Source: an uncultured Acidimicrobiaceae bacterium (GTDB lineage: Bacteria > Actinomycetota > Acidimicrobiia > Acidimicrobiales > Bog-793). From it: DNA of 64,000 bases. The notes beneath the pieces are model-generated. The model made no database searches. It was not told the origin of the DNA and saw only the letters and a list, made by a program, of their open reading frames with translations. The translations under genes were made by a program, and so were the position numbers. Every line of letters begins with the position of its first letter. Position 1 is the first letter of the stretch. The stretch covers positions 33,067 through 97,066 of the forward strand of contig CAWKGD010000002.1 in assembly GCA_963849105.1 (NCBI GenBank). Direction: 5' to 3'. Shown here piece after piece: positions 1,956 to 27,380 of this stretch.

Positions 1956-3752
1956 GTGACCCTACAAGCGACGTTCGCGGCGACGCTTGTCGACGAGTGG
2001 GTGCGCGCCGGGGTTCGCGACGCGGTCGTGTCGCCGGGGTCGCGTTCGAGCGTGCTCGCGACGGCACTCGTCGGCGACGGGCGGATCGCGACGCACGTCC
2101 GAGTCGACGAACGCTCGTCGGGGTTCTTCGCGATCGGCATCGCGCTCGTTTCGGCGCGTCCAGTCATCGTCGTGACGACGAGTGGCACGGCGGCGGCCGA
2201 GTTGCATGCCGCGGTGATCGAGGCCGATCTCGCCGGGGTGCCCATTGTCGTCTGTACAGCCGACCGCCCATTCGAGCTGCAGGACGTCGGCGCCCCCCAG
2301 ACCGTCGACCAACGGCACCTCTACGGGAGAGCCGTCCGCTTCTACGCCGATTTCGACGTGCCGAGCGAGGAAGCAAAGCCGAGCTGGCGGTCGCTCGCCG
2401 TCCGGCTCGTCCTCGAAGCAGAGCACTCGGTGAACGGGCCGGGTCCGGTCCACGCGAACCTTCCATTCCGCGAGCCGCTCGGCGGCGAGCCGGACGAGCT
2501 GCCGACGGGGCGTCCCGGCGGGCGCCCCTTCCACGAGGTCGTCGGCGCGTCGCCGCTCGCCGAGCGCGCCGTCGGCCACCTCGTCGAACTCGCCAATTCG
2601 ACGAAGCAGGGGGTCATCGTCGCCGGTCGCTGCGGGGCGGGCTGCGAGTCGACACTCGCCTTTTCGAGAGCGAGCGGCTGGCCGATCCTTGCCGACTCGC
2701 TCTCCTTCCCCCGCGAGACGAACGAGGGGCTCGTCGGCGCCTGGGAGACGATCGTGAAATCCCCGCTCGCGACGACCGCGCTGCGGCCTGACGTCGTCCT
2801 GCGCGTCGGTGCGCCGCCGGCGTCCCGGCCGCTCGCGACCTGGCTCGCGAAGGGCGCGGCGGCCGGCACGCAACACGTGCTCGTCGACCCGTACGGCAAG
2901 TTCGCCGATCCAGGGCGCACCTCGGCCACGGTGTTGCGGGCGCGACCCGACGAGCTGTTGTCGGAAGCGGAGCGCCGCCTCGGTGGCGCGGCCTTGACGA
3001 GGCCGCTGTTCGACGCGTGGATGGCCGCCGACCGATCCGCGCAGCTCGCGATCGACGAGATTCTCGGCAAGATTCCCGAGGCGAGCGAGCCCGCCATCGC
3101 TCGCGATCTCTTCGCGTTGCTGCCCCACCGCTCGGCGATCGTCGTCTCGTCGTCGATGCCGATCCGCGACGTCGACGGCTTTGCGCAGCCGCGCGCCGGT
3201 GCACCGATCGTCTACGCGAACCGGGGGGCAAACGGCATCGACGGCGTCGCGTCGACGGTGCGCGGTGTCGCCACCGCTCGTTTCGCGATGGTGCCGAACG
3301 TGCCGCCGACCGTCGGCCTGCTCGGAGATCTCGCCTTCCTGCACGACCTCTCTGCGCACGTGCGGGGCGTGGATGAAGAGCGCGTCGGGGTCACCTACGT
3401 TGTGATCGACAACAGGGGCGGGGGCATCTTCTCGTTCCTCCCGTACGCGCCCAAGCTTCGTCGTGACGTCTTCGAGCGCGCCTTCGCGACGCCGCAGGCG
3501 ACCGACATAGCCGCCGTGGCTAGCGCGTTCGGATTCGGCGTCTTCGACCTCGACGAGCGCGCGGCGTTCACGCCCGCCGTGCTGGCGGCGATCTCGTCGG
3601 GATCCGACCAGCTCGTGCTTGTCCATACCGATCGTGCTCGCAACGTCGAAATCCATGCAGAGCTCGACCGCGCCGTCGAGGCTTCTCTTGGGAGCCCGCT
3701 CGGCAGCCGCGGGGGAAAACCGAGAACTACGCCTCCTCGCCAGCCGCGCTGA
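1956..3752 (+). CDS. menD: SEPHCHC synthase (ThDP-dependent)
   Basis: SPGSRS, DERSSGFFAIG, TTSGTAAAE, TADRP, NRGANGIDG, GDLAFLHD, DNRGGGIF. Confidence 0.96.
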   Translation: MTLQATFAATLVDEWVRAGVRDAVVSPGSRSSVLATALVGDGRIATHVRVDERSSGFFAIGIALVSARPVIVVTTSGTAAAELHAAVIEADLAGVPIVVCTADRPFELQDVGAPQTVDQRHLYGRAVRFYADFDVPSEEAKPSWRSLAVRLVLEAEHSVNGPGPVHANLPFREPLGGEPDELPTGRPGGRPFHEVVGASPLAERAVGHLVELANSTKQGVIVAGRCGAGCESTLAFSRASGWPILADSLSFPRETNEGLVGAWETIVKSPLATTALRPDVVLRVGAPPASRPLATWLAKGAAAGTQHVLVDPYGKFADPGRTSATVLRARPDELLSEAERRLGGAALTRPLFDAWMAADRSAQLAIDEILGKIPEASEPAIARDLFALLPHRSAIVVSSSMPIRDVDGFAQPRAGAPIVYANRGANGIDGVASTVRGVATARFAMVPNVPPTVGLLGDLAFLHDLSAHVRGVDEERVGVTYVVIDNRGGGIFSFLPYAPKLRRDVFERAFATPQATDIAAVASAFGFGVFDLDERAAFTPAVLAAISSGSDQLVLVHTDRARNVEIHAELDRAVEASLGSPLGSRGGKPRTTPPRQPR

Positions 3753-25778: not shown

Positions 25779-26453
25779 TCAGCTCACGCGGCGGACCTCT
25801 GCGGACTCGTCCTCGCGCAGCGCGGCGATTCCGTGGCGCGGCACGATGATCTCGTCGATCAGCCCATAACTTCGTGCTTCTTCGGGCGTCAAGAAGTAGT
25901 CGCGTTCGATGTCGCGCTTCACTTCTTCGACGGGCTTTCCGGAGTGGAAAGCGATGATCTCCGCCATCCGCTGGGTGAGCGAGAGCACTTCGCGCAGCTG
26001 GATCTCCATGTCGGTCGGCGCGCCCCGCGTCCCGGCGTGTCCTTGGTGGATCATCACCTTCGACGAGGGCAGCGCGAAGCGCTTCCCCCTCGCCCCACCG
26101 CACAACACCATCGCCGCAGCGGACATCGCCATGCCGACGGAGGTCGTCGAGACGTCGCAGCGGACGTGCTGCATCACGTCGTAGATCGCCATACCGGCGT
26201 ACGCCGCTCCGCCCGGGGAATTGATGTAGAGCGTGATGTCCTTTTCGGGATCTTCTGCTTCCAGGTAGAGCATCTCGGCGATGATCAGGTTGGCGACGTC
26301 ATCGTCGATCTCGCTTCCGAGAAACACGATGCGTTCTTTCAACAGCAACGAGAAGATGTCGAAGACGCGTTCACCGCGTCCCGACGACTCGATGACCGTC
26401 GGGATGATGGAGCGGAGTTGGGAACAGGCGGCGGAATCCCGTGTCGTTGGCAT
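25779..26453 (-). CDS. clpP: ATP-dependent Clp protease proteolytic subunit (intact triad)
   Basis: IPTVIE, DIFSLLLKERIVFL, YINSPGG, GMAMSAAA (Ser), MIHQ (His), ERDYF (Asp). Confidence 0.94.
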   Translation of the reverse strand: MPTTRDSAACSQLRSIIPTVIESSGRGERVFDIFSLLLKERIVFLGSEIDDDVANLIIAEMLYLEAEDPEKDITLYINSPGGAAYAGMAIYDVMQHVRCDVSTTSVGMAMSAAAMVLCGGARGKRFALPSSKVMIHQGHAGTRGAPTDMEIQLREVLSLTQRMAEIIAFHSGKPVEEVKRDIERDYFLTPEEARSYGLIDEIIVPRHGIAALREDESAEVRRVS

Positions 26454-26463
26454 CTCGGTTATG

Positions 26464-26483
26464 ATATCTCAGATATGAGATAT
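26464..26483. promoter_or_regulatory. perfect inverted repeat ATATCTCA-N4-TGAGATAT, probable XRE operator overlapping divergent -10 boxes
   Basis: AT-rich palindrome in the 49-nt gap between clpP and the HTH gene; overlaps TATCAT (- strand, 7 nt before the clpP ATG) and TATGAT (+ strand). Confidence 0.75.
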
Positions 26484-26502
26484 GCGACGCGGGTCGTGCT
26501 CG

Positions 26503-26775
26503 ATGGCTGATGCAGCGCGCAAGCGCCGGCTGCCGGGCTTCAAGGAGATGGCCGAACGCCAGCGTGAGCTCGGCGCCGAGTTCGCACTGCGACGCCAGGC
26601 GCTCGGGCTCTCCCAGACCGAAGTCGCAGCGCGGATGGGAACCTCGCAGTCGGCCGTGGCGCGTCTCGAGGCGGGCGCGCTCGACGTGCGGCTTTCGACG
26701 CTCGCCCGCTATGCCCAGGCACTCGGCGACGACGTCGACGTGCGCCTTCTCGGGCGAGACGCAAAGCGCCGATGA
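26503..26775 (+). CDS. XRE-family (HTH_3) transcriptional regulator
   Basis: RRQALGLSQTEVAARMGTSQSAVARLEAG..DVRLSTLARYAQALG. Confidence 0.9.
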   Translation: MADAARKRRLPGFKEMAERQRELGAEFALRRQALGLSQTEVAARMGTSQSAVARLEAGALDVRLSTLARYAQALGDDVDVRLLGRDAKRR

Positions 26776-27380
26776 ACACGCCGGAATTCTCCGACGCGAT
26801 CCGCGGGCGGCTCTTTGAAGAACGCGTCATCTCGCTCTTCGGCCCGCTCACCGACGAGGCGGTGCCGGAGGTCGCCGGACAGCTCTGGACGCTCGACGCG
26901 ACGGGAGACGATCCGGTGACGCTGATGCTGTCGTGCCGGCAGGGATCCGTGCGCGCGACGCTCGCCCTGGTCGACGCGTTCGACGTCGTCGATGTCGAGG
27001 TGCACGCGACCTGCCTCGGCGCACTCGAGGGTCCCCCGGTCGGAATCCTCGCCGCCTGCTCGCGCCGGCGCGCCGCGCCGAACACGCGGCTGTTCCTGCG
27101 GGACGAGCCGGCATCGATCGACGGGTCGTATCGGACGTTGCAGCAATCCGCCGAGGTGCTCTTCGAGGAGCGGCGACAGCTGCTCGAGCGGCTCGCCGCC
27201 TCGACGAACGGCCGGCGGTCGCTCGGCGACCTCGTGGCCGACTTTGAGAAAGGACGCATCCTCACTGCCGAGGAGGCGATCGCCTACGGCCTGATCGACG
27301 AGGTGACGCCAGAGGTCGACAGGATCGTCGCGTTGCGACGGCAGAACCCAGGGATCGGTTTCAAAAAGCCGCGGCGTTAG
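26772..27380 (+). CDS. non-catalytic ClpP-like protein (ClpR-like) with C-terminal IGF motif
   Basis: ClpP fold (LFEERVISLFG, TAEEAIAYGLIDEV) with triad positions replaced (GALEGPP, FLRDEP, FEKGR); ends PGIGFKKPRR; ATGA overlap with the HTH gene. Confidence 0.82.
   Translation: MNTPEFSDAIRGRLFEERVISLFGPLTDEAVPEVAGQLWTLDATGDDPVTLMLSCRQGSVRATLALVDAFDVVDVEVHATCLGALEGPPVGILAACSRRRAAPNTRLFLRDEPASIDGSYRTLQQSAEVLFEERRQLLERLAASTNGRRSLGDLVADFEKGRILTAEEAIAYGLIDEVTPEVDRIVALRRQNPGIGFKKPRR

Follow-up and report, generated by a model that had tools for sequence, protein, structure and literature searches.

The proteolytic core ClpP is controlled through one surface pocket, which is used by all AAA+ (ATPases associated with diverse cellular activities) partners and is hijacked by acyldepsipeptide (ADEP)-class antibiotics and by anticancer ClpP activators. 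The N-terminal axial loop of ClpP gates the pore and contacts the unfoldases. Cyanobacterial and plastid Clp cores contain, in ClpP3/R rings, the inactive ClpP-family subunit ClpR, with ClpR6 as the Chlamydomonas example (10.1101/2021.07.26.453741). The present analysis concerns a three-gene unit of ~1.6 kb in which an active clpP gene, clpP3, is divergent from an XRE-type regulator gene (xre) and a catalytically dead ClpP paralogue that ends in an unfoldase-like docking tripeptide. The unit lies in a stretch of 64,000 nucleotides from an uncultured Acidimicrobiaceae bacterium (GenBank assembly GCA_963849105.1, contig CAWKGD010000002.1, positions 33,067 to 97,066 of the forward strand), which is referred to as the window. 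The trio is proposed, with an even chance of being right, to be an XRE-controlled accessory Clp module in which the tail of the dead subunit occupies a ClpP hydrophobic pocket, most likely that of ClpP3.

Three ClpP proteins provide precedents for a C-terminal extension at this pocket. In Mycobacterium smegmatis ClpP1, an extension of ~12 residues enters the subunit's own hydrophobic pocket 'in a similar manner to ADEP' and hinders docking of the ATPase; the aromatic residues that receive the extension are given as Y60, Y88 and Y110 (PMC6889138). The C-terminus of Listeria ClpP2 is able to occupy the hydrophobic (H) site (PMC9035409), and the extension of human ClpP lies over the LGF pocket and is a negative regulator of activity (PMC12852852). 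These precedents show that the C-terminus of a ClpP lies where it can reach the pocket. In Streptomyces, the regulators PopR and ClgR are described as activators that are degraded by ClpXP1P2 (PMC9765437).

The main features of the locus are as follows.

25779-26453, minus strand: clpP3, catalytically intact, 224 amino acids (PF00574, 240.8 bits)
26454-26502, no strand: divergent control region of 49 nucleotides, from the clpP3 start codon to the likely xre start (read from the sequence)
26503-26775, plus strand: xre, Cro/CI-type helix-turn-helix (HTH) regulator, 90 amino acids from ATG 26503 (HTH_31, 46.9 bits; HTH_3, 44.8 bits)
26772-26775, plus strand: ATGA, in which the xre stop codon overlaps the start codon of the dead paralogue
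26772-27380, plus strand: dead ClpP paralogue ('ClpR-like'), 202 amino acids (PF00574, 81.2 bits)

An earlier sequence-only reading of the window had described a clpP gene with an intact Ser-His-Asp triad, a divergent XRE gene coupled by an ATGA overlap to a ClpP paralogue, the replacement of all three triad positions in that paralogue, its terminal IGF and the lack of a Clp ATPase gene in the window. These descriptions were borne out: the alignment contains all three triad residues of ClpP3, the overlap and the HTH_31 match are evident, and the IGF codons lie where they had been placed. No Clp ATPase gene was found within the window; the genome carries its ClpX gene on contig C3 and two ClpB/ClpC-type genes on contig C6.

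The catalytic positions of the dead paralogue were assigned by alignment to solved ClpPs and to ClpP of E. coli K-12.

27030-27032, plus strand: Gly87 at the catalytic Ser position
27099-27101, plus strand: Arg110 at the catalytic His position
27252-27254, plus strand: Gly161 at the catalytic Asp position

The dead paralogue clearly exceeds the PF00574 cut-off of 20.2 bits but falls under every NCBIfam ClpP cut-off (ten models listed), with NF009205 as the best model (84.6 versus 228), and it is 26% identical to ClpP3. The triad regions read GALEGPP, FLRDEP and FEKGR, and the triad is missing from 15 of 15 aligned orthologues. The Ser position is occupied by an invariant Gly (15/15), the His position by R, V, A, C, T, G or S and never by His, and the Asp position by Gly (14/15) or Arg (1/15). 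The N-terminal axial loop is also missing: the protein starts ~23 alignment columns past the segment that forms this loop in ClpP3 and E. coli ClpP, and it has no P-x-V-(I/V)-E...RGER block. The handle region is at full length in the alignment and the model, and the C-terminus extends ~24 residues beyond the end of E. coli ClpP. An AlphaFold2 monomer model (69 sequences) adopts the ClpP fold, including the long handle helix, with a mean predicted local distance difference test score (pLDDT) of 87.6 and a predicted template modelling score (pTM) of 0.80. Foldseek aligned the model to ClpP chains with template modelling (TM) scores of 0.77-0.91 and root-mean-square deviations of 1.4-2.4 Å, typically about 1.5 Å. 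Alignment and model together show a protein that is unable to cleave peptides and that lacks both an axial gating loop and a proper docking pocket of its own.

The dead paralogue resembles ClpR in that both have the ClpP fold without a triad, are encoded next to an active ClpP paralogue or work together with one, and have a presumed structural or regulatory role. The link of the dead paralogue to ClpP3 is one of co-occurrence and co-regulation. It differs from ClpR in belonging to an actinobacterial lineage, and the label ClpR-like refers to triad loss and implies no orthology. The missing axial loop, the degenerate own pocket, the C-terminal xGF tail and the coupling to an HTH regulator also set it apart from ClpR.

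The dead gene is under purifying selection, as judged from sequence comparison. Within the genus, the ratio of nonsynonymous to synonymous substitution rates (dN/dS) is 0.14-0.29 for the dead gene and, for the same genome pairs, 0.06-0.14 for clpP3 and 0.10-0.25 for xre. The pseudogene-like dN/dS that the sequence-only reading had named as counting against its proposal was thus not found, and because of the observed values the gene is not taken for a pseudogene. Its split into two frames at locus L150 of genome G008 and the out-of-frame tail motif at locus L068 are what a decaying pseudogene or an annotation artefact might produce. However, 15 of the 16 family genomes with the gene have it in an unbroken frame, the fold is predicted with confidence, the orthologues share invariant non-catalytic residues (e.g. 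the LMTLDA block, R18, D68, G83 and D176), and relatives form 248 cluster representatives at E<=1e-30. Decay or artefact has next to no chance of being the explanation and was ruled out by conservation and dN/dS. An in-frame TAG suspected in two same-genus orthologues proved to be their earlier stop codon, which gives proteins of 200 amino acids.

The C-terminal end of the dead paralogue contains a candidate docking element.

27306-27377, plus strand: flexible C-terminal tail, residues 179-202 (low pLDDT in the monomer model)
27354-27362, plus strand: docking tripeptide I195-G196-F197, followed by Lys-Lys-Pro-Arg-Arg (motif match)

The protein ends in ...NPGIGFKKPRR, with IGF at residues 195-197. 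The terminal IGF singled out by the sequence-only reading recurs in xGF form: 70 of 86 distinct orthologues have [ILMFV]G[FY] among their 28 C-terminal residues. In the cores of these proteins the pattern was matched 4 times over 14,295 positions, and 0 of 84 ClpP3 tails contain it; because these controls are near zero, the tail motif is far above chance. At one further locus, L068, the tail motif is present out of frame. The consensus of the tailed proteins is PPxGFRPxR, where x is I, L, M or F; the Phe is followed by Arg or Lys in 58 of 68 proteins and then by Pro in 60 of 68. The linker from the last helix to xGF spans 13-36 residues (median 18; 70 orthologues), and residues 186-196 have pLDDT values <50 in the AlphaFold2 monomer. 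The tail accordingly has the make-up of an unfoldase-type docking element, in which [ILMV]-G-[FL] is exposed on a flexible stretch of chain.

The ClpX loop of the same genome reads KSGIGFRSE. GIGFR is present in ClpX from 15 of 16 family genomes examined, and in the remaining genome (G005) the loop was not found by a regular expression; in several other families the Phe of the ClpX loop is followed by Ser, Gly or His. The window tail, PGIGFKK, reproduces the tip of its cognate ClpX loop, including the basic residue. It shares with the IGF/LGF loops of ClpX, ClpA and ClpC, which ADEP mimics, an [ILMF]-G-F tripeptide on a flexible segment, here G-I-G-F plus a basic residue (PMC9035409, available text). 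In those unfoldases the loop belongs to a hexameric AAA+ motor, whereas here the motif is on a free C-terminal tail of a ClpP homologue, which would be 7-fold and has no ATPase domain. A full-text literature search, which did not extend to subscription journals and supplements and in which matches were judged mostly by title or abstract, found no description of an IGF/LGF-type tail on a ClpP paralogue or ClpR.

The xGF motif could instead be unrelated to ClpP pockets and act as a degron, as a contact for another partner or as a lineage-specific structural element, with a coincidental likeness to IGF. The conserved block PPxGFRPxR exceeds the tripeptide, the motif is dispensable in several sub-lineages, and pocket docking is read from sequence, all of which suit such an element. 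Coincidence is nevertheless considered decidedly unlikely: the motif is carried on a ClpP fold, at a terminus beside the pocket and behind a flexible 13-36-residue linker, it matches the cognate ClpX loop over four or five consecutive residues, and it is encoded beside a ClpP with an intact pocket. The tail-less orthologues (16 of 86) comprise a clade ending in ...PLRRVR, three Dormibacteria/Dormiibacterota loci and scattered single loci. The tail-less state requires 7 changes on the ClpP3 tree, at least 3 of them forced by well-supported branches. From this distribution, the tail looks ancestral to the group and repeatedly lost while the trio was kept.

ClpP3 passes NF001368 (278.6 bits versus a cut-off of 249), and its best solved matches are single-ClpP-type enzymes, e.g. 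E. coli ClpP (3mt6, E 6.8e-68). The triad residues Ser111, His136 and Asp185 are invariant in 72 orthologues, and the N-terminal axial loop is complete (IPTVIESSGRGER). ClpP3 also has a conserved C-terminal extension.

25830-25841, minus strand: ClpP3 C-terminal extension motif P-R-(R/H)-G, residues 205-208 (near-invariant in the alignment of 72 orthologues)

P205, R206, R207 and G208 are near-invariant in that alignment, and the window reads PRHG; this extension might lie at the hydrophobic pocket.

The two proteins differ sharply at the pocket. F112, L114, L189 and F82 of E. coli ClpP are presumed here to line it. In the dead subunits these positions are small or polar, with R, A, T or S at F112 and C, A, T, S or G at L189; in ClpP3 they are conserved, except that an invariant-like His replaces F82 in 79 of 80 orthologues. 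The available text on M. smegmatis ClpP1 further describes a pocket Tyr that is 'found in all ClpP sequences' (PMC6889138). At this position the 69 tailed dead subunits have Arg (33), Gln (12), His (11), Leu (6) or Met (3), whereas ClpP3 has Tyr in 80 of 80 orthologues and keeps the other pocket positions. The aromatic residues of a self-docking pocket are therefore missing from the dead subunits at the Tyr position; the two other positions were mapped by the E. coli numbering given for M. smegmatis ClpP1 (I104) and by presumed equivalences. From sequence, the pocket of the dead subunit itself seems unsuited to a ligand that carries Phe and the ClpP3 pocket is intact, and docking in trans is therefore favoured. 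A complex prediction for three ClpP3 chains with tail residues 171-202 gave scores of 0.20 and 0.00 against a mark of 0.32, without controls, and was used neither for nor against binding.

The same comparison bears on a cis arrangement, in which the tail would fold into the pocket of the dead subunit itself and guard it, and ClpX/ClpC would dock only on the ClpP3 face of a ClpP3(7)-dead(7) ring. This arrangement has a direct precedent in an actinobacterial ClpP1 (PMC6889138) and a geometric one in the C-terminus of human ClpP, which adjoins its own pocket (PMC12852852). The lack of an unfoldase-contacting axial loop, as in ClpP1-type subunits, and a full-length handle region compatible with ring stacking also fit it. 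A pocket with Arg, Gln or His in place of Tyr, however, leaves little to guard and little hydrophobic surface for the Phe, and a tail that copies the ClpX loop together with its basic residue suggests that the target is the pocket used by ClpX. Guarding in cis is thus judged unlikely. The trans arrangement shares with M. smegmatis ClpP1, Listeria ClpP2 and human ClpP the principle of a ClpP-family C-terminal extension at or in a hydrophobic pocket that modulates unfoldase docking, although tail docking is here a prediction. In the available text on those three proteins the carriers are active, the pockets are their own and no IGF/LGF tripeptide is described; at the present locus, a dead subunit with a degenerate pocket carries a copy of the ClpX loop tip.

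The distribution of the trio was examined in 40 relatives and the window's own genome, and the window's family comprises 25 genomes. Counting the genome of the window, 15 family members encode an orthologue of the dead protein: 4 are of the same genus (75-93% identity) and 10 of other genera (32-45%). A divergent clpP and an upstream xre accompany all 15 orthologues, and the xre stop overlaps the start of the dead gene (ATGA, GTGA or TGATG) in 15 of 15 loci (L008-L022). Among the 25 family genomes, 15 carry the intact trio, 1 carries a frameshifted dead gene, and 9 lack both the dead gene and a third ClpP, with just one or two ClpP-family matches each. ClpP3 and the dead paralogue are gained or lost jointly, and no genome of this family has a third ClpP unless it also has the dead paralogue. 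In the frameshifted case (G008 locus L150, G008:C38:115500-120500, ~2196-2660, minus strand), the dead gene is split over two frames and xre and clpP3 are intact; the split marks either a true pseudogene or a frameshift introduced during assembly.

A scan of 185,579 species genomes yielded 104 loci, of which 80 were kept. All of these are metagenome-assembled genomes (MAGs), mostly labelled Acidimicrobiales or Acidimicrobiaceae. Pooled with the 15 family loci, they give 95 loci and, after removal of 9 duplicates, 86 distinct dead-paralogue sequences. The divergent arrangement noted in the sequence-only reading proved conserved: 93 of 95 loci have xre, the same number have the divergent clpP3, and the two exceptional loci are at contig ends. 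No recurrent fourth gene or linked AAA+ gene was found at the trio loci. Flanking genes are unconserved beyond the genus, and the neighbours that do recur are clade-specific (CMD-family, SDR, ABC transporter, phosphoesterase and amidohydrolase genes). The three genes thus behave as a self-contained cassette. Two recurrent neighbour 'open reading frames' were discarded as shadow frames with no Pfam match. At three loci (L093, L098 and L105), a tail-less trio is present in MAGs labelled Candidatus Dormibacteria/Dormiibacterota; these cluster together on the ClpP3 tree and could reflect inter-phylum transfer or mis-binning.

A profile search of 1.84 billion representatives returned 248 clusters at E<=1e-30, which suggests that triad-less ClpP paralogues are not rare in Actinomycetota. 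Among the best 150 representatives, crude regular expressions detected the Ser motif in 2 and the His motif in 5, and xGF was found near the C-terminus in 39, concentrated in the top 41. By these counts, the tailed proteins form a single branch within a broader group of actinobacterial ClpP paralogues that lack the triad. The relatives are labelled Actinomycetota or Acidimicrobiales. In public databases the triad-less relatives are annotated as 'ATP-dependent Clp protease proteolytic subunit', and a Protein Atlas search gave only generic 'Clp protease domain-containing protein' clusters. A phylum-wide sample of 300 other genomes contained no close orthologue, with a best profile score of 131.5 bits versus 306.9 for the window protein. 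Among the 28 best loci of this sample (L137 left out), 26 have a His motif at the catalytic position and 22 of these also match the Ser regular expression; the other 4 are read as canonical ClpPs missed by the crude expression (48-51% identity to ClpP3). The remaining 2 of the 28, L122 and L138, are pairs of xre and a dead ClpP without a tail.

Such pairs of xre and a triad-less ClpP were observed in three other actinobacterial families (L122:517-1462; L138:821-2010; L025, minus strand, with xre at ~2171-2401 and the dead ClpP at ~1504-2013). In these three pairs there are N-terminal extensions rich in Pro but neither an xGF tail nor, within ~1.5 kb on either side, a clpP. Upstream of xre they have a palindrome that resembles the one in the window; in L122 it is ATATCTCGAAGATGAGATAT (ATATCTC-N6-GAGATAT). 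On the basis of these distant pairs, the oldest unit may be xre plus the dead ClpP, which keeps alive an explanation in which the regulator is the first partner of the dead protein.

The control elements of the trio are in and around the divergent region.

26464-26483, no strand: operator-like perfect palindrome ATATCTCA-GATA-TGAGATAT (8-nucleotide arms, 100% complementary)
26482-26775, plus strand: xre frame from the alternative start ATG 26482, 97 amino acids (open reading frame listing)
26530-26541, plus strand: L-P-G-F motif, N-terminal in the regulator and FPGF in most orthologues (orthologue comparison)

The likelier xre start is ATG 26503 (MADAARKRRLPGF...), which matches the N-termini of the orthologues; ATG 26482 is inside the palindrome. 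The palindrome core, TATCTC-N4-8-GAGATA, is unique in the 2.64-Mb genome, and a reversed control pattern has 0 matches. Of 83 distinct loci, 81 have TATC-N6-14-GATA in the gap that separates clpP3 from xre; the background is 12 matches in 331 kb of flanks on both strands (0.018 per kb per strand). Because the palindrome is 10 nucleotides from the clpP3 ATG (start codon at 26453), operator binding should occlude both divergent promoters. The layout suggests that binding to the predicted operator represses both promoters and includes autoregulation. A simple scan found no sigma-70 consensus promoter in the divergent region and no terminator, a result that is uninformative for an actinobacterium with 67% G+C.

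The regulator is a generic Cro/CI-type HTH protein. Orthologues encoded upstream of the dead paralogue are 53-88% identical to it, and its nearest solved relatives are HigA antitoxins and the 434/lambda repressors (E 3e-5 and weaker). It matches the PADLOC capH model weakly (26.4 bits), along with weak matches to HipB/HigA-type antitoxins. A defence-island reading was dropped since PADLOC gave no defence-system match for ClpP3 or the dead paralogue. An Ala-Ala degron is located at the C-terminus of ClgR and PopR, and Ala-Ala is found at the C-terminus of 0 of 15 orthologues of the present regulator. The ClgR/PopR-type label given by the sequence-only reading was not supported: in a comparison that included no ClgR or PopR sequence, the nearest solved relatives are HigA, 434 and lambda, and the operator fits a repressor better than a PopR-type activator. 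The Streptomyces popR-clpP3clpP4/clgR system is similar in having an accessory clpP under a local small HTH regulator with possible feedback through regulator proteolysis (PMC9765437). It differs in that ClpP3 and ClpP4 are both treated as proteases and the regulators are activators in the available text (PMC9765437), whereas repression is suggested here, the regulator is near HigA/434 and the second 'ClpP' is dead. The PopR/ClgR circuit is best regarded as the nearest known analogue in logic, not as a demonstrated relative.

The tight link between regulator and dead protein raises the possibility that the dead ClpP is a regulatory pseudo-protease, i.e. an anti-repressor, a co-repressor or an adaptor to ClpP for the XRE protein, and that xGF only tethers the complex. 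The translational coupling in 15 of 15 loci and the persistence of the pair and palindrome in distant families without a tail or an adjacent clpP are consistent with this role. In addition, a short [FL]PGF motif that is xGF-like is invariant in the regulator, in 93 of 93 orthologues (85 FPGF, 8 LPGF), ~ten residues ahead of the HTH, although it may equally be a DNA-contacting N-terminal arm. The weak capH and HipB/HigA-type matches also point in this direction, as does the description of ClgR and PopR as ClpP substrates in Streptomyces (PMC9765437). The [FL]PGF motif, which resembles the xGF docking motif, was also observed in the distant xre genes of L122, L138 and L025. The role would have parallels in XRE-protease pairs such as ImmR/ImmA and CapH/CapP. 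The partner in those pairs is an active metalloprotease, not a dead serine-protease fold; at the present locus, an xre coupled to its partner and an upstream palindromic operator are found, but the active (metallo)protease or toxin partner is not. A primarily regulatory role is improbable overall, and it is compatible with docking of the tail in the ClpP3 pocket.

In the proposed accessory module, the regulator would bind ATATCTCA-N4-TGAGATAT and most likely repress clpP3 and its own xre-clpR operon, since the site abuts the clpP3 start codon. Translational coupling would yield the dead subunit in a fixed ratio with the regulator. The dead subunit would associate with the co-regulated ClpP3 in what is inferred to be an accessory core, and its tail would enter the H pocket of a ClpP, most likely ClpP3. 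Occupancy of the pocket, which ClpX/ClpC loops and ADEP also use, would either hold the ClpP3 gate open with no ATPase involved or prevent unfoldases from docking. There is a slight leaning toward ATPase-independent, ADEP-like activation over blockade because activation would explain the tight local repression. For the tail to reach the ClpP3 pockets, a mixed ring or a face-to-face cap would presumably be needed. In a more speculative version, thought unlikely to be correct, a seven-fold ring of the dead paralogue caps the end face of ClpP3 with seven xGF tails in seven pockets. It would act as an encoded, symmetry-matched, ATP-independent 'ADEP', made of the same fold as the protease, that makes ClpP3 an unfoldase-independent protease, hence the dedicated repressor, and the FPGF arm could compete for the pockets and make the regulator a substrate or sensor. 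The 11S/PA26 proteasome activators are ATPase-less 7-fold rings that open a gate by placing C-terminal tails in end-face pockets; they are at most a conceivable functional analogy, because fold and protease are unrelated.

Several observations weigh against docking of the tail in the ClpP3 pocket. Sixteen of 86 distinct orthologues lack the tail although xre, the dead gene and clpP3 are kept, which suggests a tail-independent role of the dead subunit; because the tail was lost in several sub-lineages, it is not the sole function of this protein. The distant tail-less pairs without an adjacent clpP likewise appear to point to a primary partnership with the regulator instead of ClpP3. No clear difference in ClpP3 pocket residues separates tailed from tail-less loci, and the mutual information between the first tail residue and the ClpP3 pocket columns ranks 3, 10, 13, 18, 27, 43 and 62 of 102; both signals are weak and confounded by relatedness. 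Separate stacked rings such as ClpP1P2 would place the tail on the face far from the ClpP3 pockets. The tail-pocket contact itself is deduced from protein sequences, and of the pocket positions compared, the Tyr and two further ones are backed by the M. smegmatis report (PMC6889138). The sequence-only reading had interpreted the locus as a dedicated accessory protease whose dead subunit co-assembles with ClpP and uses the IGF tail to activate its partner or block unfoldases. Triad loss, the conserved arrangement, the xGF tail, the restriction of a third ClpP to genomes with the dead paralogue and the match to the ClpX loop lend that interpretation partial support; its ClgR/PopR label is not supported.

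The source organism is a soil actinobacterium with a genome of 2.64 Mb that is 93% complete and has 67% G+C, and the window is on contig C2. The genome encodes three triad-bearing ClpPs and one dead paralogue. The first ClpP is in a ClpP-ClpX operon downstream of an open reading frame of 458 amino acids, which by position alone corresponds to tig in E. coli; the second is encoded by a solitary gene, and its N-terminus is ClpP1-like and has no RGER loop block; the third is the ClpP3 of the window. The two housekeeping clpP genes (L002:1435-2058 and L001:1453-2082) are ~80 kb apart and form no joint clpP1P2 operon, and the one adjoining clpX has a full loop. Two frames, L006 (G000:C6:162946-163089, 153 amino acids) and L007 (G000:C5:110405-110536, 99 amino acids), resemble the ClpX model solely in its zinc-binding N-terminal portion (45.1 and 38.7 bits, respectively) and are possible stand-alone proteins similar to the ClpX zinc-binding domain. 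Genes around the trio in the window include a cupin and an MFS transporter (Pfam) and, as read from translations without a family search, what are presumably the housekeeping genes efp, nusB and pyrR/pyrB/pyrC.

Inactive ClpP subunits and pocket-guarding C-terminal extensions are already known, and a docking-motif tail on a dead ClpP is a new variation that is of interest to Clp specialists. Hundreds of actinobacterial entries annotated as 'ATP-dependent Clp protease proteolytic subunit' are triad-less proteins. The module is small (three genes in ~1.6 kb) and directly testable in vitro. If the proposed docking is correct, a natural protein with the docking tripeptide on a scaffold of the ClpP fold would represent a new way of regulating Clp, in the form of an endogenous activator or anti-unfoldase, and would provide a symmetry-matched tool for probing gate opening. 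The dead paralogue would then be a pseudo-protease that gained function by borrowing the motif of its partner's partner.

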